Shown here piece by piece: positions 1,797-42,174 of a DNA stretch of 64,000 nucleotides. The DNA is taken from the NCBI GenBank assembly GCA_044450645.1, contig JBIOJG010000030.1, forward strand, positions 47-64,046. The letters run 5' to 3'. Numbering within the stretch: position 1 is the stretch's first letter; the number at the start of each line of letters is the position of its first letter. The stretch comes from Candidatus Binatia bacterium. GTDB taxonomy: Bacteria; Desulfobacterota; Binatia; HRBIN30. The notes below the pieces were generated by a model. The model was not told the origin of the DNA, ran no database searches, and was given only the letters and a program-made list of their open reading frames with translations. The translations under genes were made by a program, and so were the position numbers.

Positions 1797-2840
1797 CTAC
1801 TCCGCAGGCGCCGCGTTGATTCGGTCGATCAACTGACGGAGGCGCCCGAAGTGGATGCGGTTGAAGCAGAACACCAAGCGCGGCAGATGGAAGATGGCGG
1901 CATCGTCACGTTCCGTCGGAAAGGCCGGTCGTTGCTCCATGACGCCGTCGACGATGATGTCGTGAAACTCCTCGGTGAGCGCCTGTACGAACGGCTGCGG
2001 GAGCGGACGCATCAGCCGGATCACCAAGCGGTCGCCGACGTACCGCGAGGAGTGATAGACGCGGTAGAAGGTGACAATCTCGTCGACCGCGGTCTGGACA
2101 TTGTCGGTGACCTTGTAGAGCGCCAAATCGTCAGACGAGATCATCCCGCGCCGCAGGATGTGATCTTCAACATAGCGCTGCCAGGTCTTCCAGTAGGTGC
2201 CCCGCGGCCGGTCGAGCAGGACCAGCGGTATGGGTTTCGTTTTGCCCGTTTGCAGGAGCGTCAGGGTCTCAAAGCCTTCGTCGTGTGTGCCGAAGCCACC
2301 GGGGAAGAGGACGACCGCATCGGCTTCTTTGATGAAGAATAGCTTGCGGGTGAAGAAATACTTGAAGTTGATGAGCTTCGGATCGCCGTGGATGACCCGG
2401 TTCGGCTCCTGCTCGAACGGCAGTCGGATATTGATGCCGAAGCTGCGGTCGCGGCCAGCGCCACGCTGGCAGGCCTCCATGATGCCGGGGCCGGCTCCCG
2501 TGATGACCATGTAGCCGCAGTCGGCGATGCGTGCGGCAAACAGTTCGGCGAGCGTGAAAACGGGGTCCCCGGTCTCCGTGCGAGCCGAGCCGAACGTGCT
2601 CACCTTGCGGACGTGGCGGTACGGCGCGAAGAGCTTGAAGGCATGACGCATTTCCTTGAGAGCGCCGGTGGCGATCTTCAAGTCGCCGATCGAAGTGCCG
2701 TCCCTCGCCAATTCCTGTGCGCTGGCGATGAGCGCGTCGATGTATCGCTGTTGGGCCGCGCCGGTGGTTGCTTCGATCCCCGGGTCGACCGCGCCATCAG
2801 AAATAGGAAGCTTAGTGGACATAGCACATCTATAAACCAA
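1797..2840 (-). CDS. LOG-family (TIGR00730) Rossmann-fold nucleotide-binding protein, PpnN-like, with C-terminal extension
   Basis: 347 aa. LFPGGFGTHDE motif diagnostic of the LOG/PpnN family; MVITGAGPGIMEA. Confidence 0.75.
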   Translation of the reverse strand: MVYRCAMSTKLPISDGAVDPGIEATTGAAQQRYIDALIASAQELARDGTSIGDLKIATGALKEMRHAFKLFAPYRHVRKVSTFGSARTETGDPVFTLAELFAARIADCGYMVITGAGPGIMEACQRGAGRDRSFGINIRLPFEQEPNRVIHGDPKLINFKYFFTRKLFFIKEADAVVLFPGGFGTHDEGFETLTLLQTGKTKPIPLVLLDRPRGTYWKTWQRYVEDHILRRGMISSDDLALYKVTDNVQTAVDEIVTFYRVYHSSRYVGDRLVIRLMRPLPQPFVQALTEEFHDIIVDGVMEQRPAFPTERDDAAIFHLPRLVFCFNRIHFGRLRQLIDRINAAPAE

Positions 2841-2932
2841 GCCGGATCACTGATCTACGAAGGGGGCGCAGAACGGGAAGATCCCAAGCGGCGCAGGCGC
2901 ACCCCGGCCGGACGGCTAAAGACCGCCTCGGA

Positions 2933-4036
2933 TCAAAACGTGAACCGGCGCATGCTGATGTTCATTAGCATGCCGATGGCGATCATACTGGCGAGTAACG
3001 ATGAGCCGCCGTAACTGAAAAAGGGCAGGGTGATTCCCACCACCGGCAGCGACCCAGTGGCCATGCCGACGTTGACCAGCACCTGACTGAAGATCATTGC
3101 CGTCAGGCCGAACGCCAGCAGTACCCCGAAACCGTCGCGCGCGCGCGTCGCCACGATGAAGCAGCGCAGCAGCAGTGCCGAGTACAGGGCCAAAAGGAGG
3201 CAGCCACCGAGGAATCCCCACTCTTCGGCGAACACCGAGAAGATGAAATCGGTATGCTGCTCGGGCAGGAAGTTGAGTCGGTTCTGGGTGCCGTGCAGAT
3301 ACCCCTTGCCATCGATCATGCCCGAACCGATGGCGATCTTCGACTGGATGATGTGATAGCCCGCCCCCAGTGGATCCGCGTTCGGGTTGATGAAGGTCAC
3401 GACGCGCCGCTGCTGGTAGGGCTTCAGGTGATTCCAGACGTACGGCGCGGCCGGCACTAGCACCGCGGCCAGAATCAGCACCCAGCGCAGGCGGAATCCG
3501 GCCGCCAGCAAGAGGGTCGCCATCGTGACCGCTAGCACCACGACGGTTCCGAGGTCTGGTTGCCTGAGGATGAGCAGTGCCGGCGGCGCGAGTAACAAGG
3601 CCGAAATGACGACGCTGCGCAGTGGCAATGACTCATCGCCCACCTGTCGGTGCAGGTGCCGCGCCAGGGCTACCACCAAAGCCAGCTTGGCGAACTCGGA
3701 AGGTTGCAGCGATGCCGGTCCGAAGTTGATCCAGCGGCGTGCGCCACCACCCGAAGCCCCGAGCAGTGCGGTCACGAGCAGCAGGAGTACCGCGGCTGCG
3801 TACAAGAAATACGCGTAGCGTTCGAGCCAGTGATAATCGAAGCTGACGGCGAGGAGCAGGCCGATGAGGCCGAGGGCGGCCCAGATGACCTGGCGTGTAA
3901 AGAGCCCGCTCATCAAGCGGCCGGGCGTATGGGTGGCACTGAGCACCGTCAGCAGGCCGCAGCCGATCACCAGGAGCGCACAGATCAGCAAAGACCAATC
4001 GAAATGCAGGATCAGCCGGCGATCAATTTTGAGCAT
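2933..4036 (-). CDS. rodA: rod shape-determining SEDS peptidoglycan glycosyltransferase RodA
   Basis: 367 aa polytopic membrane protein with QPSEFAKL and PFFSYGGSS SEDS motifs. Last gene of the mre operon. Confidence 0.9.
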   Translation of the reverse strand: MLKIDRRLILHFDWSLLICALLVIGCGLLTVLSATHTPGRLMSGLFTRQVIWAALGLIGLLLAVSFDYHWLERYAYFLYAAAVLLLLVTALLGASGGGARRWINFGPASLQPSEFAKLALVVALARHLHRQVGDESLPLRSVVISALLLAPPALLILRQPDLGTVVVLAVTMATLLLAAGFRLRWVLILAAVLVPAAPYVWNHLKPYQQRRVVTFINPNADPLGAGYHIIQSKIAIGSGMIDGKGYLHGTQNRLNFLPEQHTDFIFSVFAEEWGFLGGCLLLALYSALLLRCFIVATRARDGFGVLLAFGLTAMIFSQVLVNVGMATGSLPVVGITLPFFSYGGSSLLASMIAIGMLMNISMRRFTF

Positions 4037-5867
4037 AGGTGGCCTCTTCGCGGGCCTTCTTCAGGTCGAAGTAGCTTTGCATGACCTGGCGGGCGATCGG
4101 CGCGGCGACCGCTCCGCCGCCCCCTTCGGCGTGTTCCACCAGCGCGACCACGGCGATTTCCGGCGCGTCCACCGGCGCGTAGGTGACGAACCAGGCGTGG
4201 TCGCGCTCTTGCCAGGGGAGCTGTGCCGACTTGACCCGCTCTTTCCCCATCTTCACTACCTGCGACGTTCCGGTCTTGCCTGCCGCCACGATGCCGTTCA
4301 AGCGGGCGAGCTTGCCGGTGCCGTTCGGCGCGTTGACGACGTCGCGCAGGCCGTCGCGCACTTGCATGAGCGTGGTTGCACGCACCTTCAGGGTGCCGAT
4401 GATTTCAGGTGTTTCCGTTTTGACGACACCGCCGTCCGGCGTGTCGATCTGCTTCACGTATTTGGGGCGGAACCGTTTGCCGACGGCAACCGTGCTGATC
4501 ATGTTGGCCATTTGCAGCGGCGTGGCGGTGACGTATCCCTGCCCGATGGCCACCGACAACGTCTCGCCGGCATACCATGGCTGATTGAAGCGCCGCCGCT
4601 TCCAAGCCGTGTCGGGAATCGTGCCCACCTTCTCGTGTTCCAGTTCAATCCCAGTCGGCAACCCCAGCCCATAGGCGCGAGCGTAACGAGCAATCGTATC
4701 GATGCCGAGACGCTGCGCTACCTGGTAGAAGAACACGTCACAGGATTGCACCAGTGCGTCGTGCAGGTTCATCGAGCCGTGCCCCCCCTTTTTCCAACAG
4801 CGGAAGTAGTGGTTGCCGAACTGCAGGCCGCCGGGGCAGTGGATGCGGGTAAACGGGTTGATCACACCTTCCTCGAGCGCGGCTGTTGCGACGATGATTT
4901 TGAAGGTCGAACCGGGCGGGTACTGCCCCTGGATCGCACGGTTGTTGAGCGGGCGGTGCTTGTCGGTCAGCAGCGCCCGCCATTCACCGCGATGGATACC
5001 ACGCGCAAAGACGTTGGGGTCGAACGAGGGCCGGCTGACGAGAGCCAAGATCTCCCCGGTGTTCGGGTCCAGCGCGACCACGCTACCGTCATGATCGCCC
5101 ATGGCTTGCCACGCGGCGTCCTGGAGGCCGCGGTCGATCGTCAGCTTCACCGTACTTCCGGGGACCTCTTCGACTTCTCGCAGCACGCGTAGCTTGCGGC
5201 CGACGGCGTCAACCTCCACTTGCTGGCCACCATCGACGCCGCGCAGGTAGTTTTCCAGGTGCTTCTCCAGGCCGACCTTGCCGATGAGATCGCCCATGCG
5301 ATTGCGCGGATCGGCCAGCATATCTTGCTGACTGCCCTCGCCCACGTACCCGAGCAGATGTGCTAGCTCTCCATTGAGGGGATAGCTCCGGCGTGAGGTA
5401 ATCTGGAGGCTCACACCGGGAAGGTCGAGCTGGTGCGTTTCGAGCGCAACCATGTCTTCCCAGTCCAAGTCGCGCTTGATGGTGATGCCCTCGAACGCCG
5501 GCCGGGCAGGCGTCTGAGTGAGCAGGGCGTGCACGTTGGCGGCGCTCTGGTGGAAGAATTGGGCCAGGTTCTCGACCGTCAAGCCCATGTTGTGGGCATC
5601 TTCCGGAACCAGGACCGCGTCAAAGGAGGGCCGGCTGTCGATCAGTACCCGACCGAAACGATCGAGCACCGTGCCACGAGTTGCCTGCACACGGTGCAGC
5701 CGGATGCGGTTGTTTTCAGACAGTGTCCGCATCTCGTCGCCGTGCAGAATCTGCAGATCCCACAGCCGGGCCAGGAGCAACAGAAAGCACAGGAGCCCAA
5801 TTCCAAGCGCGATCATGACGCGCTGGCGCAGGACTGCGGGGACCTCGCGTTGGCTGAGCGGGACCAC
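4023..5867 (-). CDS. mrdA: penicillin-binding protein 2 (peptidoglycan D,D-transpeptidase)
   Basis: 614 aa. N-terminal TM anchor, PBP dimerisation domain, transpeptidase motifs STFK, SCD, KTGT. 14-nt overlap with rodA. Confidence 0.9.
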   Translation of the reverse strand: MVPLSQREVPAVLRQRVMIALGIGLLCFLLLLARLWDLQILHGDEMRTLSENNRIRLHRVQATRGTVLDRFGRVLIDSRPSFDAVLVPEDAHNMGLTVENLAQFFHQSAANVHALLTQTPARPAFEGITIKRDLDWEDMVALETHQLDLPGVSLQITSRRSYPLNGELAHLLGYVGEGSQQDMLADPRNRMGDLIGKVGLEKHLENYLRGVDGGQQVEVDAVGRKLRVLREVEEVPGSTVKLTIDRGLQDAAWQAMGDHDGSVVALDPNTGEILALVSRPSFDPNVFARGIHRGEWRALLTDKHRPLNNRAIQGQYPPGSTFKIIVATAALEEGVINPFTRIHCPGGLQFGNHYFRCWKKGGHGSMNLHDALVQSCDVFFYQVAQRLGIDTIARYARAYGLGLPTGIELEHEKVGTIPDTAWKRRRFNQPWYAGETLSVAIGQGYVTATPLQMANMISTVAVGKRFRPKYVKQIDTPDGGVVKTETPEIIGTLKVRATTLMQVRDGLRDVVNAPNGTGKLARLNGIVAAGKTGTSQVVKMGKERVKSAQLPWQERDHAWFVTYAPVDAPEIAVVALVEHAEGGGGAVAAPIARQVMQSYFDLKKAREEATYAQN

Positions 5868-6365
5868 TTATTCTTCCTCGGCGACGGCCAACTGCTGGCT
5901 GTGAGCCAGCAGGGCGAACACTGCGGGGCTGACAACGGCGGCAAGGGCCGCTTCAAGAAACAAGTACCGGAGAACGCTCTGCCACAAGTTTCCGGCCGAC
6001 ATGAAAAAAGCGATGAGTGCAAACACCGCCGTGGTCTTCAGCACGGACGCGAGAAACACCAAGACAATCTTCGAAATGGCGTTGTCGACCCATAAGCGCC
6101 GCGACGTCAGGTATACCAGAATGAACACCAGGCACATCCCACAGGCATTCAGTCCGACCACGCTGCCCGAGAACGTATCCTGTAAGTAGCCAAGGAGAAA
6201 GGCGCCGACCGCCCCAGCGACGGAGTGCTGGTGCAGACCCAGGTAAACACAGACGATCAGCAGCAGATCCGGAGTGGCCTGACCGACGGTGAGGAACGGA
6301 AGGAGGGTCGTTTGCAACAACAGTGCCGCTACCGCAATGGTGGTCAACAAAACTGCCGCCCGCAC
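5868..6365 (-). CDS. mreD: rod shape-determining protein MreD
   Basis: 165 aa small polytopic membrane protein between mreC and mrdA. Call rests on position and hydrophobicity. Confidence 0.7.
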   Translation of the reverse strand: MRAAVLLTTIAVAALLLQTTLLPFLTVGQATPDLLLIVCVYLGLHQHSVAGAVGAFLLGYLQDTFSGSVVGLNACGMCLVFILVYLTSRRLWVDNAISKIVLVFLASVLKTTAVFALIAFFMSAGNLWQSVLRYLFLEAALAAVVSPAVFALLAHSQQLAVAEEE

Positions 6366-6433
6366 GGACTAAGCCCCCATTTCGGTATCCGTACGGACGG
6401 GTTGAGAGAGAGAGGGAAACTGCGCCACTGAGA

Positions 6434-7273
6434 TCACGGGGCCGTCTCCTTCAACTGGACGCTGCCGTGTGTGACCAGCACCTCCTCGATGCGATCCAAC
6501 GGCACGCTCGGCTTGATGTCGGCCACTTGGAGCAAACCCCGATTTCCACGTGTGACGCGGGTGACCTCGCCGATCATGATGCCTTTTGGGAAGAGTCCAT
6601 CCAGTCCTGAGGTGACGACGCGATCCCCAACTTCCACGTCCTCGTCGCGCTTAAGATACTTCATTACGCAGCCGCCATCCAGCGCGCCCTCGACAATACC
6701 GCGTGCCCGACTGCGCTGGACGACGGCATCGATGCCGCTGTTGTGGTCGGTGAGGAGCAAGACGCGGGCGGAATGGGTTCCTGTCGCCATCGTTTGGCCG
6801 ACGACCCCGAACGGCGAGAGCACCGCGGCATTCTTGTGCACGCCGTCGCCTTCCCCTTTATCGATCGTCAAAGTGCTGAACCATGGCAATGGGTCGCGGC
6901 CGATGATGGTGGCCGCCAGTATGTCGCCCTCGAGCGTCGAGCGCAAACTGAGGAGTTCTTCGAGCCGCTTGTCGGTCTGTTCGACTTCCCCGAGTCGCAC
7001 AGCCTCTTGCTCGAGCTCGAGAATGCGGCGGCGCAGCCGTTCGTTTTCCTGCCTGACACCGACCAGATCGAAGTACATGCGCCATGTTCCCACGACAACC
7101 TGAATCGCGCTGGTGGTCGCTCGTTGCAGGGGCCACATCCCGTCGAGCACTACGCCGGCAACAGGATCCATGCGCCGCCGCGTCCGAGAACCAACGGACA
7201 GCAAGAGCACCGAGATCAGCAACAACGATCCGGAGGTGAGGACGACGCGATTTCTCCGGACGAACTCCAGCAT
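6434..7273 (-). CDS. mreC: rod shape-determining protein MreC
   Basis: 279 aa. N-terminal TM, coiled coil (RLRRRILELEQEAVRL), C-terminal beta domains. Sits downstream of mreB. Confidence 0.85.
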   Translation of the reverse strand: MLEFVRRNRVVLTSGSLLLISVLLLSVGSRTRRRMDPVAGVVLDGMWPLQRATTSAIQVVVGTWRMYFDLVGVRQENERLRRRILELEQEAVRLGEVEQTDKRLEELLSLRSTLEGDILAATIIGRDPLPWFSTLTIDKGEGDGVHKNAAVLSPFGVVGQTMATGTHSARVLLLTDHNSGIDAVVQRSRARGIVEGALDGGCVMKYLKRDEDVEVGDRVVTSGLDGLFPKGIMIGEVTRVTRGNRGLLQVADIKPSVPLDRIEEVLVTHGSVQLKETAP

Positions 7274-14173: not shown

Positions 14174-17100
14174 TCACCCTGCGGGGCACGCGAACAATTG
14201 TGAGTCAAGACAGCTGTCGTACGACTCGTCGATGGTACCGTTGTCGCCCACGTCGATGGTCACGCCACCGGACGTGTAGGTGATGCGGTCGGTCTTGCCA
14301 CCGGCGGTCACCCGGATCGCCCCAAGGGTGGGGCAAACGTTTCCGGGTGGAATCGAAAGCGGCGTTACGGTCTGGAAGATGACATCATCGCCACCGAGGC
14401 AGGCCGAATTAGCGGTCCCATTCACCGTGCCTACGTCGTTTCCGGATGTCCGGTCATCGGCGAAAACGAAACTGGTGAACGTGGCGCTGAACGTGCCACC
14501 TTCTGCGTCGGCCAGCGTTACGGGACCGTTGAGAGTGATACGGTAGATCTGCGGTACACAGTCGGTGTTGAACTGATCGATATCAACGCGCACGTCCGTG
14601 CTGTCAAAGCCGAGCGTTTCGTTGAGCATAGAGGTCTGAACAACGAGGGTGCCCGTAAGCATCATGTCGGCAGCCGCGATCTTGCATGCGGAGAAGAGGT
14701 CCGGCGTGACGTTGAGAGACCCTGTCAAGTTCACGGTTGCGGTGAGAGTGGTCATCCCCGCGTTGACTGCCGTGATGTGCATGTTGTTCACGGCGAAAGA
14801 GGAGAGGGACAGAGGCGGAAAGCCGCAGGTGGCCAGGAGTCCGGTCTCGGTTGACTGGGCGGTGATAGTGCCTTCGATCGTGACGGTCGCGCCGGTGGTG
14901 GTGTTGAGCGTGCAGTTGGTGAGCGTGACTACGTAGTCGCGCACGCCCGGAACGGCCTGGGTGCAGGTGAAATTGTAGGTGCCGCCACCGTTGCAGCTGT
15001 GGTCGGCAGCCGCGGTTCCTTCGAAGGCTCCAGCCGCTCCGCCCTTAGCGAGCGGGGCGAGTGACGAGATCAACGCGGGTAAGCCCTGCAAGCCTTGCAC
15101 CAGGGTGACAGTTGTCGCTGCCGCCCGCCGCGGCACGGTGCCTTGAGTGGTGGTGGGTGCTGGGGTGGGAGGGGATGCCGTTGGTGTAGGCGTGGCGGTT
15201 CGCGTAACGGTTGGCGGCAGCACTCCGGTAGCCGTCGGAGTCCTCGTCGGGGTGAGGATCGGGGCCACACAGCCGGTCAAGGCGTTGTTGACCGCCGTGA
15301 GTATCTCGTCGACTGTGATGACATTGTCCAGATTGGCGTCGCCAGGTAGGCACGCCACTATGCCTGTATTCCCGAGCGCGATATTCACCATTGTCAAGAT
15401 CTCATCCACGGTGACCTGATTGTCGCAGTTGCAATCGCCAACACAGGAGGAGCACAGGCCAGGGCTCGCGGTGGCCGTCGGGCTGCTGCTTGGCGAGCGT
15501 GAACCGGTTGCGGTTGGTGTCGCCGTCGCCGGCGAACCGGTGCGCGTGGCGGTTGGAGTGGGGGTCGGGGTCGCGGTCGCCGGTGAGGCCGTGGGTGTTG
15601 CCGAAGGTGTCGGCGTCCCCGTCGGTGGCCGTGAGCCGGTCGGCGTCGCTGAGGCGGTAGGAGTCGCTGTCGGTGTGGTCGTTGGCGTGAAGGTGATTTT
15701 CGGCGGTCGCGTCTGGGTCGGCGTCTGTGTGCGCGTCGGTGTTGATGTCGGTGAGCCTATCGGCGGCGTCAGGCTTGGGGTGGCTGAGGGCGTCAGCGTA
15801 CGCGTCGGCGTTGAGGTCGGAGAGGGGGGTCCCGGGGTTGCAGGTGTGGTTGAGGGTGTTGGGGAACGCGTTGGCGTCAAGGTTGCCGGCGGCACCGCAG
15901 TCGCAGTTGGCGTCGGGGTTGGGGTTGTTGACGGGGTTATTGTTGGCGTGAAGGTGATCTTCGGTGGCCGCGTCTGTGTCGGGGTCAGGGTTGGCGTCAG
16001 TGACATGGTTGCTGTCGGTGTCAGGCTGGGTGTTCGTGTCGCGGTCGGTGTCAATGAAGGCGACACGGTCTGCGTCGGGGTGGAAGTCGGTGGCCGCGTG
16101 CCGGTCGGCGTAAGCGACGGCGTGAAGGTGCGTGTGGGTGTGAAGGATGGCGGAGGCGTCTCGGTTGGCGTGTTGGGTGGAGTCTCAGTATACGTCGGCG
16201 TGAAGATCGGCGACTGTGTCTGCGTCGGCGAGGCAGTCCGCGTACGCGTGGGTGTCCAGGTGGGCGGCGTGCCTGTCCTTGTCGGAGGCGGCGTGCCGCC
16301 GATGCAGATTCGTAGCCCCCAGCTATCGAGAGTGCCCGTGTCGAACAGCTGTCGGTCATAGATTTCCAACAGCCAGACGCCAGCGGCATCCTCGCCAGTA
16401 AACAGCCCAAGCGGTTCACTGGGCAGATGTGGCAGGCCGTCAGTCGGTGGACAGACCATCGGGCTGCCGAGATCGTCGAGAATGAGGTTGAAGCCGTAGT
16501 TGTTCCCACAGACCCGGTTCAAGATGGTCACATCGGTGCCCAACGGACTGATGAGATGGAATTCGAGGTCTTGCATGAACGTGTGCGTGCCGGTGAGCGG
16601 TCGGACGCTTACGGAGGTGATGGTCCCTCCCGAGGGCACGACCAAGAATGAGGCCGTCGACCCGAGATCGGGAATCGATTGGGGAACATCATTAGAAGAA
16701 TAATCATGACAGTTCGGTGGTATCGTGGCAGTAGGGGTCGGCGGCGGTGTACCGAAGCACACTTTCAGTCCCCAGCCTTGAAGGGTACCGGTGTCCCCGG
16801 CTTCGCGGTCGAAAATCTGCAACTTCCAGGTGCCGGCCGCGGTCTGTCCGTGGAAGGTGGAGAGCGGATTATCGGGGACGCGGGGCAAGCCATCGGTCAT
16901 CGGACAGGTGAACGGGCCTCCCAAATCGCTCACGTCGAGGTGGAAATCCTGAGAGCTTCCGCACTTGCGATTGATGATGGTTACGTCGGTACTCGCCGGA
17001 CTGATCAGGTGAAACTCCAGATCTTGCACGAACGTGTGTGTGCCGGTGAGGGAGAGCACACTGACCGAGGTGAGCGCGCCGCCGCTGGGAACGTTGAGCG

Positions 17101-18841
17101 TGGAGATTGTGAAACCGAGATCCGGAATCGCTTTGGGCACGTCGGTCGAGAAGTAGTTCTGGCAGCCGGGCTCTGCTGTCGGTGTGGGCGTTGGCGTACC
17201 ACCGCCGAAGCAGACCTGTAGCCCCCAGCCTTGAAGGGTGCCGGTGTCCCCGGCTTCGCGGTCGAAAATCTGCAACTTCCAGGTGCCGGCCGCGGTCTGT
17301 CCGTTGAAGGTGGAGAGCGGATTATCAGGGACGCGGGGCAAGCCATCGGTCATCGGGCAGGTGAACGGGCCTCCGAGATCGCTCACGTCGAGGTGGAAAT
17401 CCTGAGAGCTTCCACACTTGCGATTGATGATGGTTACGTCGGTACTCGCCGGACTGATCAGGTGAAACTCCAGATCTTGCACGAACGTGTGTGTGCCGGT
17501 GAGTGAAAGCACACTGACCGAGGTGAGCGCGCCGCCGCTGGGAACGTTGAGCGTGGAGATTGCGGAACCGAGATCCGGAATCGCTTTGGGCACGTCGGTC
17601 GAGAAGTAGTTCTGGCAGCCGGGTGGAGGTGTTGCCGTCGGCGCTGGGGTATTGGTCGGGGTGGTGGTGACTTCGATAGTCCAACTCTTGAGTGCTGTGA
17701 CCTGAGGCTCTCCTACGTCAGGAGTGCCGTTGCCGTTGCTGTCTGCGAACGCCAGTATCGAGTCGTCTCCAGCGCCACCGGCATCCGTATAGGTGAAGGT
17801 CACCTTCCCGTCTGCGTCGCTATGACAATCCGCTGGCACGCAACTCCCAGTGGCCCCCAAGTTTGGTCCTGCCGTGATCTTGAAGCCGATGAGGCTGCCG
17901 GGTACCGGAGCGCCCGTCGCGTCGCGGAGTTGGGCCGTGACGGTGTGCGTTGTGCCGACGGGGTTTGATGCCGAACCCGGTGTGAGCGACAAGCCTACGG
18001 AAATGAGTTGCTCACCGCGCGCCAGGATGTATGGTGTCCCGACCGTTCCATCCGGGGCAGTAAATGAGGACCCAAAGTTCCGTGCGATGGCCAACACCAG
18101 GAAATTGGCTGGCCACTTATCGAACGCTTCGTGTACCGAACAACTCCAGTTCGAGATGTCCACGTCGGTGAGGCCGGCCAGGGCCGGATGGGAGGCGACG
18201 ATGTGTGCGTCATTGTAGCAGTTTAGATTTCCGGTTACGGTAAACCCGCCGGCGAAGAAAGCGTCCAAGAGCGGCACCGGTGTGCCCGCACTCGCATAGT
18301 TGTAGTAGCAGCTTAGAGTGATGTAGGCGCCGGTCTTGTTTGGCTCGGCTGCGGCAAAGGCGATGCCTTTTTCAGTAAGTGTAGCAGCACCCGCTACACC
18401 TATTGCGGCATGATAGGCGGGGTCGGCCCCGATGAGGATCACGTTGCCGCTGACCGCCGGTCCCCACACTCCGGTGTTTGCCTGGGCCGCAGAAACTGGG
18501 CCAGTGCTGGTAGTGTTACACGTAGGGTCTCCGAGGATTATCGCCTTGTAGGTGGCAAAGTCGGCCGTGCTCTTGGCGGCCCATCCCGCGTCGTCCACGA
18601 TTTCGACGCCGAACCCCAACGCCGTTGCCTTCGTGGCTTCAACGCTGGAGGTTCCGCCGCTCACCGTGTTAGCAAGAATGAGCACCGTGTTAGAGTCAGC
18701 CGCGCCGGTTGCTAGTGCGGGATGGCGACCGCCACCGAGTACCAATAGTCCCAAGACAATGATTAGCAGCGACGTGACGAATGGCCTGCGCGAGCGCCTG
18801 CCGGCATCGCACCGCTCTTGCGTAACGGTTGCAGAGTTCAT
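14174..18841 (-). CDS. giant secreted multidomain protein: N-terminal unknown domain, Big-like Ig domain, 3 tandem proprotein-convertase-type P-domains, about 250-aa Pro/Thr linker, dockerin-like module, C-terminal unknown domain
   Basis: The ORF track gives 14174-19051; a signal-peptide-like start (MNSATVTQERCDAGRRSRRPFVTSLLIIVLGLLVLGG) lies at about 18841. Three about 150-aa repeats have the P-domain pattern (GTWKLQIFDREAGDTGTLQGWGLQVC). Dockerin-like CVGDCNCDNQVTVDEIL...PGDANLDNVITVDEIL. No subtilase domain was recognised. Confidence 0.8.
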   Translation of the reverse strand: MNSATVTQERCDAGRRSRRPFVTSLLIIVLGLLVLGGGRHPALATGAADSNTVLILANTVSGGTSSVEATKATALGFGVEIVDDAGWAAKSTADFATYKAIILGDPTCNTTSTGPVSAAQANTGVWGPAVSGNVILIGADPAYHAAIGVAGAATLTEKGIAFAAAEPNKTGAYITLSCYYNYASAGTPVPLLDAFFAGGFTVTGNLNCYNDAHIVASHPALAGLTDVDISNWSCSVHEAFDKWPANFLVLAIARNFGSSFTAPDGTVGTPYILARGEQLISVGLSLTPGSASNPVGTTHTVTAQLRDATGAPVPGSLIGFKITAGPNLGATGSCVPADCHSDADGKVTFTYTDAGGAGDDSILAFADSNGNGTPDVGEPQVTALKSWTIEVTTTPTNTPAPTATPPPGCQNYFSTDVPKAIPDLGSAISTLNVPSGGALTSVSVLSLTGTHTFVQDLEFHLISPASTDVTIINRKCGSSQDFHLDVSDLGGPFTCPMTDGLPRVPDNPLSTFNGQTAAGTWKLQIFDREAGDTGTLQGWGLQVCFGGGTPTPTPTAEPGCQNYFSTDVPKAIPDLGFTISTLNVPSGGALTSVSVLSLTGTHTFVQDLEFHLISPASTDVTIINRKCGSSQDFHLDVSDLGGPFTCPMTDGLPRVPDNPLSTFHGQTAAGTWKLQIFDREAGDTGTLQGWGLKVCFGTPPPTPTATIPPNCHDYSSNDVPQSIPDLGSTASFLVVPSGGTITSVSVRPLTGTHTFMQDLEFHLISPLGTDVTILNRVCGNNYGFNLILDDLGSPMVCPPTDGLPHLPSEPLGLFTGEDAAGVWLLEIYDRQLFDTGTLDSWGLRICIGGTPPPTRTGTPPTWTPTRTRTASPTQTQSPIFTPTYTETPPNTPTETPPPSFTPTRTFTPSLTPTGTRPPTSTPTQTVSPSLTPTATRTPSLTPTATMSLTPTLTPTQTRPPKITFTPTITPSTTPTPTPTATAVPPATLTPTRSPTPSTTPATPGPPSPTSTPTRTLTPSATPSLTPPIGSPTSTPTRTQTPTQTRPPKITFTPTTTPTATPTASATPTGSRPPTGTPTPSATPTASPATATPTPTPTATRTGSPATATPTATGSRSPSSSPTATASPGLCSSCVGDCNCDNQVTVDEILTMVNIALGNTGIVACLPGDANLDNVITVDEILTAVNNALTGCVAPILTPTRTPTATGVLPPTVTRTATPTPTASPPTPAPTTTQGTVPRRAAATTVTLVQGLQGLPALISSLAPLAKGGAAGAFEGTAAADHSCNGGGTYNFTCTQAVPGVRDYVVTLTNCTLNTTTGATVTIEGTITAQSTETGLLATCGFPPLSLSSFAVNNMHITAVNAGMTTLTATVNLTGSLNVTPDLFSACKIAAADMMLTGTLVVQTSMLNETLGFDSTDVRVDIDQFNTDCVPQIYRITLNGPVTLADAEGGTFSATFTSFVFADDRTSGNDVGTVNGTANSACLGGDDVIFQTVTPLSIPPGNVCPTLGAIRVTAGGKTDRITYTSGGVTIDVGDNGTIDESYDSCLDSQLFACPAG
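16292..17650. repeat. intragenic tandem repeat, period 453 bp, 3 copies; copies 2 and 3 (16745-17650) are about 97% identical
   Basis: Seen as duplicated antisense ORFs 16679-17221 and 17231-17506, whose translations differ at 5 of 90 residues. They correspond to P-domain repeats 1 and 2 of the giant protein; the third copy is divergent. Confidence 0.7.
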
Positions 18842-19190
18842 AACGACTGCCGCCAAGCAAGGTGGTCCCCCACCCACGACTTCCCTGCGTATCGCTATCA
18901 TTTGTGTCGCCCCCGTTACGTCGTGCTGTCGTGCTGCGCCAGATCGTGACCTAATTGCCCTGGAGGGCGGTAGGCAATACGCGTGCCAGCGTGGACGGCG
19001 AGGCGGCCCTCGCGACCTACGAACGAACAGACCCGTGGTCTTCCGAGTCATGGGAAAACTCTTCTTGTGCGCCGGGGCAACCGCTGGAGTAGTACGAGCG
19101 AAAAGAGGCTAGAATTCCGCAAGACCGCCCGGTTGACTCGCCTGGTATCAGCCAGAGGGGGAGACGCGGATTCCGATTCCTAGTGCTTTT

Positions 19191-19475
19191 TCAGTGGCGC
19201 ACGTGAAAGACGTCGAACTCGCCGGTGTACGGCAGCCAGTGCTCTTCGACATCGGTTACGAGCGCAGCGCGTGGACCGACGTGGCCCCAGGCTGCCAGAA
19301 GCTGCAGCCGCTCCTTCGAACCCTCGGCAACGAGTTCGACGTCGCCATCGGAGGCGTTGCGTACCCACCCCGTGAGTGCAAGGCGGCGGGCCTCAGCCAC
19401 TGCGGAGAAACGAAACCCGACTCCCTGCACGCGCCCCTTGATGCGGAGCCATAGGCGCGCCCGTTCTTCGGCCAT
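19191..19475 (-). CDS. acyP: acylphosphatase
   Basis: 94 aa. RVQGVGFRFSAVAEARRLALTGWVRNASDGDVELVAEG is the acylphosphatase signature. Confidence 0.85.
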   Translation of the reverse strand: MAEERARLWLRIKGRVQGVGFRFSAVAEARRLALTGWVRNASDGDVELVAEGSKERLQLLAAWGHVGPRAALVTDVEEHWLPYTGEFDVFHVRH

Positions 19476-19502: not shown

Positions 19503-24549
<5,047 letters not shown>

Positions 24550-24553
<4 letters not shown>

Positions 24554-26136
24554 GCTGGTCACAAGGATCTTCGATGAGGGAAGCGGCTGTGCGGGTTCCT
24601 GGTAGAAATGCTGTTGGGGTTGTCTGCCTCATCTTCGCAAGTGTCCTTATGCTGTGGAGTGTGCCGGCACGAGGCAATGTGCGCTCTCAGGCGCTGTACG
24701 CGCGCGGCTTGATCGCCTTCAATGATGCTCAGTGGGCCCAAGCCACCCGGCTGTTCGGCGAAGCTGTGCAGGCGGATCCCAGTGATGCGCTGGCACTGTA
24801 CTATCGTGGTTTGGCGCAAGGGCACGAGGGGCATTTTGCGGCAGCGATCCAGGATATCGAGCAGGCACTGAAACTGAGTCCAGCGCTTCCGCACGCCGCC
24901 TTGGACCTCGGCATCGCCTGCTTCAACAGTGGGCAATACGCGCCTGCCAGAACTTGGCTTGAGCGGGCCTATGAGCAAGGGACAGAACGCTTCACGGCGG
25001 CGTACTTCTTGGGATTGACGCTCTATCGTTCAGGTGAGGATGCGGCGGCTGGGGCGTACCTGAAAGAAGCCGAAGCCGATCCGGAGCTTCGGCCGTCGGC
25101 GCACTACTATGCGGGTCTGGCGCTGCTGCGGCAAGGCAAGCCAGCTGCGGCGCGCGGCGAACTGGTTGAGACCGCCCGCGAACAGCCGCAGTCCGAGATC
25201 GGTAAGGCTGCCCAGGCGTATGCCGGCGGCGCGGGGGTGCGCCAACCACCGGCACGACTGGCACAGGAGCACAAGAAGCCTTGGTCGTTGTATGCGGCGC
25301 TTGATTTTCAATACGACAGCAATGTGGTGATTGCGCCGTCGGACTCGGAGGTGAAGGCGGCGGAGGGCATCAGCCGCCAAGCCGATGGCCGCAGCGTCAT
25401 TGCCGCCGGAGGCAGTTACTTCCTGCTCGACGGCGACGCGGGATCTGTGCGGGCGCAGTACGACTTGTACCAAAGCGTACATTTCCGTCTCACCAAGTTT
25501 GATCTGCAGGGGCACCGCGTGCGCTTGGACGTCGCTTCCAAGCCCGCCGCGTTGCGCTACGGTCTGGCGTGCACGTACGATTTCTATGCGCTCGACTACC
25601 AGTCGTTTTTTCAAGAGGGCTTGGCCACCCCGTGGGTAGCATTGGCAGAAAGCCCAGCCGCTGTGACGCAAGCATACTACACGCTTCGCGGCCGAGACTT
25701 CTTCCGCAAACCGTTCAGTCCGGCGCGTGACGGCATCGACAACGCGGCGGGCCTGCGACAGTATATTGACCTAGGGAGTGCGGAACGGGTCTTGAGTTTC
25801 GGCTATCAATTCGATTCCGATGACACGACCGGGCACGATTTCAAATACGACGCACACCAAGTCGACGTCGGGGTCACTCTTCCGCTCCTCGATCTGGCCA
25901 ATGCCCGGCTCGGCTATCTGTTTCGTCTCGAAGACTATCAGTCGCCCAACAGCCGCGCCGGGTTCCGATTTCGCCGACATGATAGCGAGCATCAGTTCGC
26001 CGTAGCGCTATCACATGATCTAACACCGACGGTGGCGCTCACGCTGGCTTATGTGGGAGTCCTGAATAACTCCAATTTGACTGCCTTCGAATATGATCGC
26101 GATATCGTGTCGGGCGGCGTGCAGGTGACATTCTGA
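24550..26136 (+). CDS. outer-membrane protein: N-terminal TPR domain plus C-terminal predicted beta-barrel (Slam/DUF560-like or PgaA/BcsC-like porin architecture)
   Basis: 528 aa. Signal peptide; TPR repeats ([43 protein letters not shown]...); C-terminal half of alternating amphipathic strands ending in the OMP signature ...GGVQVTF. Confidence 0.6.
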
Positions 26137-26161
26137 GGCGTGCCGGATGATCCCCCAGACG

Positions 26162-27031
26162 ATGAAGAGAACCGTGTGCGTGCTAGCCATCGCCCTCGGT
26201 TTGGCTGCGAGTGCTCAGGCGCAGTCGGAAACCGGAACAGTGGCGGCCATGGTGGGAGCGCTGCAGATTCAGCGCGGTGGGGCCTGGCAGGCGGGTAGTA
26301 TTGGGGCGCCTGTGTTCACTGGCGACCGGCTGCGTACCGGGGCGAACGATCAAGCCAAGATCGTCTTTCGAGAGGAATCGGTTCTCGACATGGCGCCAAA
26401 CACGGAGATCCTGTTGGATACACAGGTGTTCGACCGGCCTCCACGACTGCAATCGCTCTTACGTTTGAGCGGAGGGAAAATTCGAGCTTGGGTGAGCGAG
26501 TCCTACCATGAAGCGCGGTCGCGCTACGAGGTAGAAACTCCCACCGCCGTCGTTCGTGCCCGCGGGACCGAGTTCATAGCGCTCTACGATCCCGGGCCTG
26601 AACTCACCGATGTGGTGTGCCTCGCTGGGGAAGTGGAGGTCGTTGGCACACTGGGAGTGATCGGCAACAACGTGCAAGTGGGCCCGCAACTTCACTCTCA
26701 GGTTGCAAAGGGTCGCTTTCCAACGACAGCGCAACCCGTCGATACGACGCAGATGCCGCAATATGCCGCGGGTCTGGAAATCATCGGTACCGGCCACCGG
26801 GACGGTTTGAACATCCAGCACCCCGCTGTGGCAGGGCGCCTGATCGCGGCGCAGGACCTACCTGTCGGTGCCGCACCGACCGGCGCAGAGGAGATCACCG
26901 TCGGAGCTCCGCAGGAGTTTCTGGTTGACCGGCTATCCCCCGACGTTCGCACCAACACCCAACCGCTGCTCGATTTCGAGCGCACCCCACCGGGCCAGGT
27001 GCCAACCGGGAGTGTCAAAGTTCAGTTTTAG
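26162..27031 (+). CDS. FecR-domain periplasmic protein
   Basis: Signal peptide MKRTVCVLAIALGLAASAQA. GDRLRTGANDQAKIVFREESVLDMAPNTEILLD...GGKIRAWV...VVRARGTEF matches the FecR fold pattern. Confidence 0.65.
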   Translation: MKRTVCVLAIALGLAASAQAQSETGTVAAMVGALQIQRGGAWQAGSIGAPVFTGDRLRTGANDQAKIVFREESVLDMAPNTEILLDTQVFDRPPRLQSLLRLSGGKIRAWVSESYHEARSRYEVETPTAVVRARGTEFIALYDPGPELTDVVCLAGEVEVVGTLGVIGNNVQVGPQLHSQVAKGRFPTTAQPVDTTQMPQYAAGLEIIGTGHRDGLNIQHPAVAGRLIAAQDLPVGAAPTGAEEITVGAPQEFLVDRLSPDVRTNTQPLLDFERTPPGQVPTGSVKVQF

Positions 27032-35072: not shown

Positions 35073-35295
35073 GCGTTGCCCGGATAGAAGAGGCCCTGCC
35101 CGAAGTCAACGCGCCATGGGCTCATTGGCCTGCTTGCCCGACCTTGGTGAGCCAGGCGTCCCCCGCGTGTGCAGGTTCGTTCAGCGCTGCAGCCATTTGT
35201 TGTTGATGGTCTTTTGCAGGTTGTGATAGCGATGGGTCCCATCCATGGAAGCCTGGGACAGAGCAGGCGCCGAGGCTCCTCACACATATGATCAT

Positions 35296-37833
35296 ATGAT
35301 CAATACGGGGCTCAGATTGGAGGGGGCCGACCCTCGGCATCGTCCACTCACGCGCGCCGGTACCACCGTCGCTGCCTGGGCGCTTGCCTTGGTTGCGCTG
35401 GGTTCGCCTTGGCGCGCAACCGCGCAAGGCATCGAGGGCACGACCTACGAGATGGAAAAGGTCACGCCGCAGGAGTTTCGCGGTAACGTGCGCAACCTGC
35501 CCAGGCTACCTCCCAGCCCCAAGATGTATCGACCCCTGCTGCGGGGACCACGTAGCACCAAAATATTTCCGAGCCGACCAACCACTTTTGAGTCAATCCC
35601 TGTCCCATTTTCCCTCCCGTTGGCGCAGATGCCCGGCCCGGTGGAAGACTTTGCCGGTCTGAGTTTCATCGACAGCTGCACCGGTGGACAGTGTGGCGCG
35701 GGCTGGCCTCCCGACCCGAACGGGGACGTGGGTTCGAACCATTATGTCCAAGCGGTCAACGATGCCTATGCCATCTACAGCAAAACCGGCACCCTGCTTG
35801 CCTCGTTCACGGAGGATCAGTTGTGGAGCGGTAGTGGAGCGAATCCCTGCAACGGTGATTCTCAGGGCGACACCGTTGTTGTGTACGATCAGCTGGCGGA
35901 CCGGTGGATTCTCACGCACTTTGCCTTCGCCACCGCTGGAAGCACCCCGGTCTCGCCGTTCTACGAGTGCATCGCGGTGTCGAAGACGAGCGACCCGGTT
36001 ACGGGCGGGTGGTGGCTGTATGCCCTGCGCATGGACCCAGGCGGCGCGGGCAAGCCTTCCATCAGTACAATGAACGATTATCCCAAATTTGGCTTGTGGC
36101 CCGATTGCCTGTACATGGCGGCCAATGGCTTCAGAGAACCGGGCGACACTTTCGTCGGGGTGGAGTATGCCTCATTCAGCCGCGGTGATCTGGAAAGTGG
36201 CGCCGCGCTGACATGGTCGCTGGGTGTTGTCAACAATGCGACGGACCCCTTCACCATGATTCCCAGCAACCTGTTGGGCAGCTCACCGGGCACGCTGCCC
36301 CCACCCGGTACGCTGAACTACTTCGTCTCCGAATCGCAAACCACGTCGGCCTTCGAGGTGAGAACATTTGCGCCGGGCGGCAACTGTGGTGCTGGCGGTA
36401 CGCTCAGCTCCGCGACGAATGTGAGCCAGACGACCTATTTGGGCACGCCCGGCATGAACGTGCCTCAGCCCAATACGACGAACCGGATCGATGCGATCGA
36501 CGACCGCCTGATGCAAAAGGTGCAATATCGCAAAGTCGGGAGCGCCGAATCGCTGTGGGTTGTTCATTCGGTCCAAACCTCATTCAGCGCTGCGGTGGCA
36601 CCGCAGTGGGCCCAGATCGATGTCACTGGGGGCACGATTGCTACAACACCGGTTCAGCAACAAATCTATGCACCCGATACGACCCTCTATCGCTGGATGG
36701 GTAGCATAGCTGCCGACAGCGAGGGCAACGCGGCGCTCGGCTACAGCACCTCGAATGGTACCGCGCCGAACTACCCCAGCATCGCCTACTCCGGGCGCCT
36801 CGTGGGCGATCCGCTCAATCAGCTGCCGCAAAGCGAAGTCAAACTGATCGACGGGGAAGGCTCGCAAACTAATAGTTGCAGTGGCATCCCATGCGGCCGC
36901 TGGGGCGATTACAGTGCAATGAGTGTCGATCCAGCCGACGACTGCACCTTCTGGTACACCAACGAGTACTACAGCAGCCAAGCGAACGGCAATAGTGGGA
37001 ACTGGCAGACACGCATCGGCTCGTTCAAGTTCCCGTCTTGCGGCAGCGCCGCGCCGACCAGCACCCCGACAAACGTACCCACGGACACCCCGACCGATAC
37101 GCCGACTCAGACGCCGACAGTCACGCCAACGAGTACTCTGACCGCAACGGAAACCGCGACACCGACCAATACGCCGACGGAAGCCGCGACGGCAACACCA
37201 ACAAACACGGCAACCGTGGCTCCGACCGACACGGCGACGCCGACAGCAACCGCAAGCGTGACGAATACCGCGACGGACACGCCGACTAATACCCCAACGA
37301 GCACAGCAACAGCGACTGTGACGAATACGCCGACAACAACCCCGACGAGCACCCCGTCGGACACGCCGACCAATACCCCGACTGACAGTCCGACCGTCAC
37401 CACCACCCCAACAGTTACGCCGACGAGTTCGCCTACCGATACACCGACCACTACCCCAACTCACACACCGACCGTAACGTCGACACAGACGTCCACTCAG
37501 ACACCAACCGCCACAGCAAGCGCGACGCCAACGCTAACGGCAACAGCGACCGGGATGCCGACGCCTACTTCCACAGCCACGGCGAGATCGACTCCGACTG
37601 GCGTCGCTACTCCAACCGCGACACCTACGGCCACGGCGACATTGGTCGCGTGCGTCGGCGACTGCAATGGAAGAAGGACGGTGACTGTGGACGAGATCCT
37701 TATCATGGTGGATATTGCGCTCGGCAACGCGCCGCTTCACTTGTGCAATTCCGGCGATGCGAACGGAGACGGACGGATAACGGTCGACGAGATTCTGAGC
37801 GCGGTGAACAATGCCCTGAACGGATGCCCTTGA
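35296..37833 (+). CDS. secreted protein: about 600-aa unknown domain, Pro/Thr linker, C-terminal dockerin-like module
   Basis: Signal peptide [22 protein letters not shown]. The unknown domain is Cys- and Trp-rich ([25 protein letters not shown]). TPT-repeat linker of about 190 aa. C-terminal [25 protein letters not shown]...[29 protein letters not shown]. Confidence 0.7.
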
Positions 37834-40344: not shown

Positions 40345-42174
40345 TTGCAAATGGACGGACGGAAGCGCATGAGAGGTCGAGTCAGCTTTTGCATGATGTC
40401 TAGGGATCAACGCTTTCGGCATCGCGCACGGGGCATCCTCCTTGTGTCCGTGGTATTCCTGTCATGCATGAATATGGCGGTTGCAGCAGAAGTGCTCCCC
40501 GGCGACGCGGACTGCGACGGCGGAGGAATCGGCGCCGCTGACCTTGTTGCCCTCGAGGACGCCATCTTCTCCGGCAGCGACTGCGCCGGCGCGGACGTGA
40601 ACCATGACGGCGCAGTGACGGCAGCTGACCTGGTGGCGGAAATGGTGTTGCTGGTTCCGCCAACGTCGACCCCAACGCTGACACCGGCACCGTCGGTCAC
40701 CCTGACGCCAGTCCCTTCAGTCACGAACATCCCATCTCCCACGCCGTTTCCTACTGCCACCGTCTCGGCGACGCCGACGATCACGTTGAGCCCTACGATC
40801 ACTGGTACGCCTACGGTGAAAGGGTCACCGACCCGCACGTTCACGCCATCGCGGACGGCGACCCCATCTGCGACACCCACGCGTACGCTCCGGCCCACGC
40901 CCACGATCACCTCAACCTGGACCATTCCGCCGTCACCTACTCGCACAGCGACGCTCACGCCAACACCAACCCGTACGCCAACCTCAACCCGCACGCCGAC
41001 GGTGACACCTACGTCTACTCCGAGCCCCACACCAACTTCCACGCCGACGCTCACTGGGACGCCGACGCCGACGAAAACGGCCACTGCGACCGCCACGTCC
41101 ACCGCCACGCCAACGGTCACGCCGACTTCCACCGCGACCCTAACGTTCACGCCGACGCCGACTTTCACCGTGACCCCGACGTGGACCGCCACCCGAACGT
41201 CGACCGCGACGCGGACCCCGACCGAGACTGCGACAAACACCGCGACGCCGACGCCGACGCCGTCTCAGACCGCAACCGGTACGGCGACCGGGACGCCGAC
41301 GCTCACGGCCACGCGGACATTCACCGCGGTGCCGACGGCGACGGGGACCTACTCGCCGACGTTGACACCGAGCGTGAGCCCGACGCGAACATCGAGCCCA
41401 ACGGTGACCTCTTCCCCCACGACCAGTGCGACGCGGACTTTCACCCCGAGCTTTACAGCGACGGTCACGGCAACAGCGACGGCCACGGCAACACTGACGC
41501 CGACGGGGCAGGGTCCGATCATCACGTTTTTCGGAGTCCTGACGAGAGCGGATGGCTGTATTTCCTGCTGTGACGTCAGTTGCGCCAACACACCGACGCC
41601 CACGCCGTTCTTTGATGACCAGGGCCGCCGCATTTTTCAGGTCGACGGCGGTATCCTGAATATCGTCGTCGAGGGCGGCAAGGGGCTGAGTACAGCGGAT
41701 GTAGCGACATCACTGCAACCGAGCCCCCCGGACAATCGACCCGACCTTCAGATCGAGGCCACGCAAAGCCTCGGCGACGGCAGCCCTGCAGTATGCGACA
41801 TCGGTCCCACCTCAGCGGGAGGCGGCGGTGTTCCCGGGATAGTGCCGCCCGATTTTACACTTGAACCGAACCCGGGGCCGACGCCGGGGACGATCTCCGG
41901 GGCGCTGGCCGATTTCGCCTGCCGCTTCAGCTACCAAGCACCAGGTTTCCAATGCACCTACTGGGACCTGGCGACGCCGGGGTATGCCGGCCCGGGAAGT
42001 TCCGCTCAGTTCTGCGACCAGACGGATGCGAACGCCGCGTTCAATCCGGGAGACTCGATTTTGACGGTGCGGTTGCGTGACGTCAACGGCAACACCGGGC
42101 CGACGGCGCAGATTGTGGTCCGAGTGAACACGCCAAGGCCGACGCGAACGCCGACGCAAACGCCGACGCCGTGA
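40345..42174 (+). CDS. secreted protein: N-terminal dockerin-like module, about 250-aa Pro/Thr linker, C-terminal unknown domain (paralog A)
   Basis: Signal peptide ([20 protein letters not shown]; start likely an internal Met near 40393). [25 protein letters not shown]...[23 protein letters not shown]-terminal domain with [10 protein letters not shown] and [14 protein letters not shown]. Confidence 0.7.

Follow-up and report, generated by a model that had tools for sequence, protein, structure and literature searches.

What do P-domains, the companions of the catalytic domain in kexin and furin, do in a protein that has no protease domain at all? This question is raised by a giant gene in a stretch of 64,000 nucleotides (nt), hereafter called the window, which covers positions 47 to 64,046 of contig JBIOJG010000030.1 in the genome assembly GCA_044450645.1 of a Candidatus Binatia bacterium. 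The coding sequence occupies positions 14174..18841 of the window on the minus strand, including the stop codon at 14174-14176, and encodes a protein of 1555 amino acids (aa) with three P-domain repeats in tandem; all features of the protein described below lie on this strand. We lean somewhat towards the view that the gene product is exported and is a modular protein located outside the cell or on its surface, whose P-domains would serve as non-catalytic stalk or binding modules. The evidence for this view, the alternatives to it and the observations that do not fit it are discussed in the following.

The assignment of the repeats to the P-domain family, which a preliminary description had proposed from the sequence pattern, was confirmed by a Pfam search. 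P_proprotein (PF01483) matched three stretches of the whole protein with an expectation value (E) of 1.9e-35 and 121.3 bits, compared with a cutoff of 21; repeat 1 alone scored 47.6 bits and repeat 3 alone 44.7 bits, which gives 45-48 bits per copy, and repeat 2 shares 97% of its residues with repeat 1. Other beta-sandwich families such as PKD or CARDB, which had been considered as possible better matches, do not appear even at E<=10, where P_proprotein is still the sole family found. The unit of 151 aa, comprising the domain and a 13-aa linker, occurs three times: repeat 1 corresponds to aa 408-558 (17168..17620, core 17204-17620), repeat 2 to aa 559-709 (16715..17167) and repeat 3, the older copy, to aa 710-860 (16262..16714). 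The absence of a subtilisin/kexin domain was likewise borne out, since neither Peptidase_S8 nor any other peptidase family was found in the protein with Pfam and NCBIfam. The protein can therefore not be assigned to the proprotein convertases (kexin/furin, MEROPS S8B), because it lacks the S8 domain and the region upstream of repeat 1 consists of an N-terminal domain, hereafter N-dom, and an immunoglobulin (Ig)-like domain. A zinc metallopeptidase with accessory P-domains was rejected as well, because the HExxH zinc motif is absent from all 1555 aa and no metallopeptidase family of Pfam was matched; by contrast, the relative L001 possesses a GHELGH motif. Hence, the giant protein is predicted not to be a protease, whereby the term non-catalytic refers to its P-domains and to recognisable peptidases. 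The module order given in the preliminary description was essentially right, except that the supposed N-terminal domain of about 400 aa resolves into several parts: the 407 aa before repeat 1 comprise a signal peptide, the 236-aa N-dom, the Ig-like domain and a short linker.

Compared with the P-domain of kexin and furin (PF01483; S8B), the repeats are clear family members: with about 140-150 aa they have the typical length, and they display the conserved C-terminal strands with the pattern GxWxLxIxDxxxxDxGxLxxWxL. They differ from it in that three tandem copies are present instead of one, that no subtilisin-like catalytic domain is associated with them, and that each copy contains four conserved Cys and lies in the interior of a presumably secreted, modular protein. 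Kexin-type enzymes depend on their P-domain for the folding of the neighbouring S8 domain and for its behaviour towards Ca and pH (PMC2605481). This known role is not transferable to the giant protein, because there is no adjacent S8 domain; the P-domain literature that we found dealt throughout with S8-linked P-domains.

The comparison with bacterial relatives indicates that the lack of a protease is nothing exceptional and that such layouts are frequent in environmental bacteria. A word-indexed homologue search with one P-domain repeat gave no match. When 1.84 billion cluster representatives were searched exhaustively with a profile, 10,980 of them matched at E<=1e-3, including 255 with E<=1e-30. 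The best-scoring proteins are 600-5800 aa long and contain 2-18 stretches of P-domain; the P-domain is thus widely reused, in thousands of protein clusters and in arrays of up to 18 copies. A sample of 43 of the best matches, each shorter than 2000 aa, was scanned with Pfam at E<=1e-5. P_proprotein was present in all 43 proteins. Peptidase_S8 does not belong to the 25 most frequent families and can occur in at most one of them, because the 25th family in the list already has one member. Among other peptidases, reprolysin-like domains were found in five and M4 in two proteins, and most sampled relatives have no peptidase domain of any kind. Further domains are a type IX secretion system (T9SS) sorting domain (10 proteins), fn3 (7), lysyl oxidase (5) and VWA/DUF1194 (3). 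In view of this domain mix, the bacterial P-domain of this subtype is, as far as can be judged from sequence, a general extracellular module that is easily amplified. The statement in the preliminary description that P-domains normally accompany a subtilisin/kexin domain is true of eukaryotic convertases, but it does not apply to this bacterial subfamily, in which P-domains without a protease represent the normal state. Our results thereby correct an expectation derived from the eukaryotic enzymes.

Multi-P-domain, protease-less secreted proteins are thus abundant in sequence databases, though uncharacterised. Those represented by P0241, P0242, P0243 and L019 resemble the giant protein in their tandem arrays of the same P-domain subtype, their Pro/Thr linkers and the lack of an S8 domain. 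They differ in the head, which is VWA/DUF1194 or missing instead of the N-dom and Ig-like domain found here (in L019 the three P-domains follow straight after the signal peptide), and in additional Cys-rich repeats that are absent from the giant protein. The three P-domains of the window are each other's nearest neighbours, with 97% and 62% identity, and none of them exceeds 57% identity to any outside domain. Internal pairs with at least 80% aa identity occur in 9 of 41 multi-P-domain relatives, and in P0241 such pairs reach 89%.

The high similarity of repeats 1 and 2 raises the question of how and when the array was formed. Tandem Repeats Finder reported a period of 453 nt with 1.9 copies and 96% matches at 16752-17623, which supports the proposed origin of these two repeats by an intragenic duplication. 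The tandem near-identity itself was correctly recognised in the preliminary description, but the value of 97% at the DNA level over 16745-17650 was slightly generous: repeats 1 and 2 share 96.1% of nt over the 414-nt core and 91.8% over the 453-nt unit, and 97% of aa in the core. Repeat 3 shares about 61-63% of nt and 62% of aa with repeats 1 and 2, from which it is equally distant, and the number of synonymous substitutions per site (dS) in this comparison is saturated (>2). The cores of repeats 1 and 2 differ at 16 of 414 nt, 11 of these differences being synonymous and 5 non-synonymous, and Nei-Gojobori counting gave a dS of 0.12, a non-synonymous rate (dN) of 0.016 and a dN/dS of 0.13. Therefore, both copies appear to have diverged for some time under purifying selection. 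By these counts, repeats 1 and 2 are two selected copies and not a brand-new duplication, and the qualification of the duplication as very recent was too strong.

Instead of a duplication of the entire unit, the cores of two older repeats might have been kept similar by gene conversion. The high identity spans about 419 nt of the 453-nt period, the differences gather towards the 3' border of this tract (codons 133-136), and the 13-aa linkers after repeats 1 and 2 are equal in length but share only 46% of their nt, which makes them no more similar to each other than to the linkers that precede repeat 1 and follow repeat 3 (46-51%). Moreover, relatives also contain internal pairs with 80-93% identity. 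The divergent linkers make gene conversion of the cores as plausible as a simple duplication of the unit. However, the Pro/Thr-coding linkers are of low complexity, and slippage may simply have made them diverge much more rapidly; the equal distance of repeats 1 and 2 from repeat 3 is what a plain younger duplication predicts, and no orthologue was found by which the events could be dated. Hence, either the linkers turn over very fast or the cores were homogenised by gene conversion. We regard homogenisation without a recent 453-bp duplication as a serious candidate, with a chance slightly short of even.

The preliminary description had also regarded an assembly collapse at the repeats as likely. 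Short-read metagenome assemblers are known to struggle with tandem repeats of 96% identity, and exact-match look-ups recovered no independent assembly with a matching sequence as a cross-check. The array could be a spurious duplication, or a larger near-identical array collapsed to two copies. This explanation is very unlikely, because the differences between the copies are in frame and mostly synonymous, as expected of two genuine copies under selection and not of an assembler error. Furthermore, the linkers are unrelated in sequence, and relatives from independent assemblies contain similar near-identical internal pairs. The longest exact run shared by repeats 1 and 2 is 89 nt, shorter than ordinary reads, so that reads can separate the copies and the argument for a collapse is weak. 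A third near-identical repeat copy may be hidden.

Secretion of the protein is suggested by its N-terminus. The open reading frame (ORF) is open from 14174 to 19051, and translation from the ATG at 18841 yields the 1555 aa. In P0001, to which the N-terminus is most closely related, translation begins at the corresponding position with a similar signal peptide, and the 70 additional codons upstream of the ATG, up to 19051, are Arg-rich and non-coding in appearance. The first 44 aa (18710..18841), as read by eye from the translation, look like a signal peptide with the sequence RRSRRPFVTSLLIIVLGLLVLGGGRHPALA followed by TG, which combines an n-region with RRSRRPF, a hydrophobic core and a putative cleavage site between ALA and TG. 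The n-region RRSRRPFVTS (aa 15-24, window 18770-18800) resembles the twin-arginine motif S/T-R-R-x-F-L-K, and this motif-like sequence is absent from P0001. The whole protein contains 35 Cys, and export of a disulfide-rich protein of 1555 aa by the twin-arginine translocation (Tat) pathway seems unlikely.

The signal peptide is followed by the N-dom (aa 45-280; 18002..18709), a conserved but unannotated alpha/beta domain of 236 aa. NCBIfam assigned no family to the protein, and the N-dom has no relative in Pfam, NCBIfam or among the sequences of the PDB. Searches of the latter with the whole protein, with a profile of the N-dom and with a profile of the C-terminal part described below recovered no relatives, the sole match being a flavodoxin with an E of 1.4. 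The N-dom has 243 homologues at 47-77% identity, whose source names point to Chloroflexota, Actinomycetota, Acidobacteriota, Pseudomonadota, Kapabacteria, Binatia-like and other bacteria. Most of them measure 280-410 aa and combine a signal peptide with an anchor at the C-terminus or with an Ig or Cys-rich tail; LPXTG, IPTL-CTERM, PEP-CTERM, a transmembrane helix, DUF4215, Big_1 and CARDB are represented among these tails and anchors. The AlphaFold (AF2) model calculated from 44 sequences has a mean predicted local distance difference test score (pLDDT) of 94 and a predicted template modelling score (pTM) of 0.92. Its best match in the PDB with Foldseek is 1wl8 (E 5.9e-3, TM-score 0.39-0.47), and other, likewise weak matches comprise PabA, a ThuA-like protein and a gamma-glutamyl peptidase. 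These matches suggest a distant class I glutamine-amidotransferase-like, that is flavodoxin-like, fold of the N-dom. The model shares with the GATase1/ThuA-like structures (1wl8, 8rp2 chain B and 4jqs) a flavodoxin-like parallel sheet with the conserved residues on loops after strands. It differs from them by the weakness of the match (9-16% identity, no sequence relation), by the lack of the conserved triad and by its presumably extracellular location.

Seven residues of the N-dom are invariant in the alignment, namely D104, D139, H143, T169, S234, H236 and D263 (D61, D96, H100, T126, S191, H193 and D220 in the local numbering of the domain, to which 43 has to be added to obtain the protein numbering), and the local residue H169 is present in 43 of 44 sequences. 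Cys residues are lost in pairs in the same sequences, C64 with C134 and C164 with C190 in local numbering, and therefore two disulfides, C107-C177 and C207-C233 in the protein, are likely. Since the local C134 would be a disulfide partner, the Cys at the position of the would-be nucleophile is probably structural. The Glu after the invariant His occurs in only 31 of the 44 sequences. The Cys-His-Glu triad of glutamine amidotransferases is ruled out for the N-dom by this Cys covariation together with the variable Glu, whereas the invariant Asp, His, Ser and Thr residues leave an enzymatic or metal-binding role possible.

Hence, it has to be considered that the N-dom is a new extracellular, possibly metal-dependent hydrolase, which is folded or stabilised by the P-domains as in kexin and furin. 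The high identity across Chloroflexota, Actinomycetota, Acidobacteriota, Pseudomonadota and Binatia-like sequences, the invariant residues together with H169, and the best fold matches, which are hydrolase- or transferase-type amidotransferase-like proteins, would agree with an enzyme head; a stabilising function of P-domains has a precedent in the kexin-type enzymes (PMC2605481), and L001 pairs one P-domain with an HExxH region. On the other side, the fold match is weak and the triad is missing, an Ig domain and a linker separate the N-dom from the first P-domain, and the two domains are not coupled, because most relatives of the N-dom have no P-domain and most relatives of the P-domains have no N-dom. 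We therefore consider such an enzyme with P-domain partners improbable, and continue to prefer a modular surface protein in which the P-domains are non-catalytic.

The Ig-like domain (aa 281-391; 17669..18001) is similar to Big_1 (PF02369), although its match (E 4.6e-6, 27.1 bits) stays below the Pfam cutoff of 34.9 bits. Big_1 follows the N-dom in 8 of 44 relatives, with a best E of 1.2e-7. Some metagenomic giants, L087/L088 (ORF from locus 2236, 3406 aa) and L085 (ORF from 1669, 2674 aa), carry the unit of N-dom and Big_1 three to four times in tandem; therefore, the N-dom itself seems to be an amplifiable module that is not always N-terminal. The closest relative of the N-dom is found in L001 (77% identity), a protein composed of N-dom, Ig domain, one P-domain, a Cys-rich module, the GHELGH region and a C-terminal EF-hand pair. 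The L001 locus (2063-6604; Logan SRR13378642) has an in-frame TGA exactly between the N-dom and the Ig domain, flanked by TAVGL and LTPSQ, and the gene caller accordingly reports two genes of 282 and 1215 aa; the TGA could be a sequencing error, the mark of a pseudogene or a read-through site. No conserved neighbours were seen around three stand-alone N-dom genes. Transposase genes of the IS110, IS1595 or rve type adjoin two of the three (L094 and L096, the contexts of P0027 and P0048). Taken together with the patchy distribution across phyla and the high sequence identity, these transposase neighbours suggest a horizontal transfer of the N-dom.

Downstream of the P-domains, a Pro/Thr/Ser-rich linker of 272 aa (aa 861-1132; 15446..16261) consists to 71% of Thr (35%), Pro (25%) and Ser (11%) and contains degenerate short repeats at the DNA level. 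It leads to the module that had been described as dockerin-like (aa 1133-1191; 15269..15445), from which a second short Pro/Thr linker, defined by its composition (aa 1192-1229; 15155..15268), extends to the C-terminal domain, hereafter C-dom. The dockerin-like module appears to be a Cys-stapled EF-hand pair: it comprises two loops of the type DxNxDxxxTVDE with a helix behind each of them, and four of its Cys are invariant. The duplicated segments of loop and helix, about 22 residues each, read DCNCDNQVTVDEILTMVNIALG and DANLDNVITVDEILTAVNNALTG, and their pattern is kept in 32 aligned modules. Pfam matched the module only to EF-hand_1, EF-hand_6 and EF-hand_7 (E 0.03-0.1), and Dockerin_1 (PF00404) was not found in the EF-hand pair of the giant protein. 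With a profile of the 32 sequences, the best match in the PDB was KChIP4 (E 7e-4), followed by further EF-hand proteins at E 1e-3 to 1e-1, the individual stretches being weak, whereas type I dockerins appeared at E 0.04-0.07. Among 41 relatives of the C-dom, EF-hand_1 is present in 35 (best E 2.7e-6) and a weak Dockerin_1 in 8 (best E 0.0037). The term dockerin-like is hence correct with regard to the duplicated loop and helix, but canonical EF-hand pairs resemble the module more than type I dockerins do. It has in common with dockerins and canonical EF-hands the size of about 60 aa and the two 12-residue loops of the Ca-binding type D-x-N-x-D-x-x-x-T-x-D-E followed by a helix; like dockerins, it is C-terminal in most Binatia proteins, and some relatives score to Dockerin_1 and one contains Cohesin. 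It differs from type I dockerins by a Glu at loop position 12, as in canonical EF-hands, by the four invariant Cys that staple the module and by its internal position in the giant protein, where another 364 residues follow.

The EF-hand pair is widespread in the lineage, which was formerly assigned to the 'Deltaproteobacteria'. In the species representatives of GTDB, 127 stretches matched the module, almost all of them in metagenome-assembled genomes (MAGs) of Candidatus Binatia (contigs L002-L081). Dozens of proteins per Binatia MAG carry it, with about 25 loci in the isolate SPRUCE 133, and in most Binatia ORFs it is situated at the extreme C-terminus, within the last 65 residues or so. P0237 combines it with a Pfam Cohesin domain in one protein. 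The dozens of carriers per MAG and the Cohesin domain of P0237 suggest a lineage-wide cohesin-dockerin-like system in Binatia, in which the module might bind cohesins in a Ca2+-dependent manner. A literature search for both Binatia and dockerin found no paper. Non-cellulosomal cohesin- and dockerin-like modules have already been described in many lineages; therefore, the EF-hand pair of Binatia represents a variant and not a new category.

The window itself contains a second carrier of the module, an 862-aa Pro/Thr-rich protein encoded at 35245-37833 (+) without any Pfam family, the last 70 or so residues of which match the hidden Markov model of the module with 104 bits. A Pro/Thr-rich protein of 761 aa (42283-44568, +) reaches 22.7 bits for Dockerin_1, with a threshold of 22.9, at aa 44-85 near its N-terminus; it is adjoined by a further Pro/Thr-rich protein of 609 aa (40345-42174, +) without a Pfam match. 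The window thus most likely belongs to a Binatia-like genome that encodes many carriers of the module.

The Cys-rich C-dom (aa 1230-1555, 326 aa; 14177..15154) has about 50 full-length homologues, mostly from Binatia, in which it always follows the EF-hand pair and a short Pro/Thr linker. It contains 10 Cys, 8 of which are invariant, and the C-terminal ending CPAG is common to the family. In its AF2 model (pLDDT 93, pTM 0.91), three helices precede a series of about 15 long strands in antiparallel arrangement. The C-dom has no Pfam family, and no real fold match was obtained in the PDB (Foldseek, TM-score <=0.23) or in BFVD. Engineered OspA proteins rank first, but an OspA-like fold was rejected, because the TM-score of 0.14 reflects the long beta-meander alone. 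Outside the giant protein, P0241 and P0242 share the cassette of EF-hand pair and C-dom and place it behind a VWA/DUF1194 head, three to four P-domains, a Pro/Thr linker and Cys-rich repeats. Other heads are Cys-rich (P0137, P0138 and P0160) or contain CARDB (P0126), and P0153 is made up of a signal peptide, the EF-hand pair, a Pro/Thr linker and the C-dom, with nothing else. Since the cassette is found behind differing heads or without any head, it is the constant part of these proteins and would most likely serve for attachment or assembly.

The constant C-terminal position behind variable N-terminal parts would also fit an outer-membrane beta-barrel, which exports and anchors an N-terminal passenger like the translocators of type V (autotransporter-like) systems with a helix and about 12 long strands. 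The secondary structure of the AF2 model, with helices and a subsequent meander of strands of 10-18 residues, and the alternation of hydrophobic and polar residues read from the sequence of several strands point in the same direction. However, no porin or autotransporter barrel matches the model (best TM-score 0.14-0.2), Pfam did not find an autotransporter domain in 41 members, eight invariant Cys are untypical of membrane barrels, and the C-terminus (LFACPAG) lacks the terminal aromatic beta-signal. A translocator barrel is accordingly highly improbable.

Collectively, our data support the notion of a secreted surface or matrix protein, because mix-and-match modules are combined with a signal peptide, pairs of disulfide-forming Cys and Pro/Thr linkers. 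The signal peptide would export the protein. Its head would be formed by the disulfide-bonded alpha/beta N-dom and the Ig-like domain, and its stalk by the three P-domains and the 272-residue linker, in which the P-domains may act as beta-sandwich spacers, as ligand binders or as both. The base would comprise the putatively Ca2+-binding EF-hand pair, the short linker and the Cys-rich beta-domain, by which the protein may be attached or assembled. The number of P-domains has probably grown by intragenic tandem duplication, with repeat 3 splitting off long ago, whereas repeats 1 and 2 could go back to a later duplication or to homogenisation by gene conversion, both copies being apparently kept under purifying selection.

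Several observations weigh against this interpretation. The conservation of the N-dom at 47-77% identity across several phyla, with its invariant Asp/His/Ser/Thr set, would fit an enzyme, and the headless P0153 is equally compatible with a C-dom that is functional by itself as with one that is an anchor. The neighbours of the giant gene are housekeeping genes, among them rsmI-like and nadE-like ORFs, a putative acylphosphatase and ligA, and give no functional hint. Finally, a close full-length orthologue, with which the copy number of the repeats could be compared, was not found by exact-match look-ups, a genome scan with the single protein and a metagenome scan; neither the giant protein nor the rsmI-like ORF nor the acylphosphatase had an exact match, the metagenome scan yielded relatives of the N-dom alone at <=60% identity, and alignment A2 was discarded as a source of orthologues because it is too divergent.

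A more far-reaching interpretation is conceivable, though we regard it as rather unlikely. The EF-hand pair and the C-dom would then form an undescribed, Binatia-specific attachment or assembly cassette, cohesin-dockerin-like but with canonical EF-hand chemistry, on dozens of secreted proteins per genome. The stalk of P-domains and Pro/Thr linker would display the N-dom, which in turn would represent a new multi-phylum family of extracellular, possibly metal-dependent enzymes.

Regarding the genomic surroundings, a 94-aa ORF at 19191-19475 (-), a candidate acylphosphatase by its RVQGVGFR motif, sits on the same strand between a ligA-like ORF (19503-21536) and the giant gene, from the start of which it is separated by about 350 nt of non-coding DNA. 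Also near the giant gene, a 976-aa ORF at 21623-24553 (+) encodes a Pro/Thr/Ala linker of about 280 aa followed by a beta-propeller of the YVTN/lactonase type (Lactonase, E 1.4e-14). The linker DNA at 23000-23499 has a GC content of 0.72 and an AT skew of 0.61. Further ORFs at 24550-26136 and 26147-27031 are located 3' of this gene.

These findings address no long-standing open question. The less ordinary parts of the giant protein are two unannotated domain families, the N-dom and the C-dom, and an EF-hand-pair module that occurs Binatia-wide. Together, these three well-defined, uncharacterised modules outline the construction of surface or secreted proteins in an uncultured lineage of soil bacteria.

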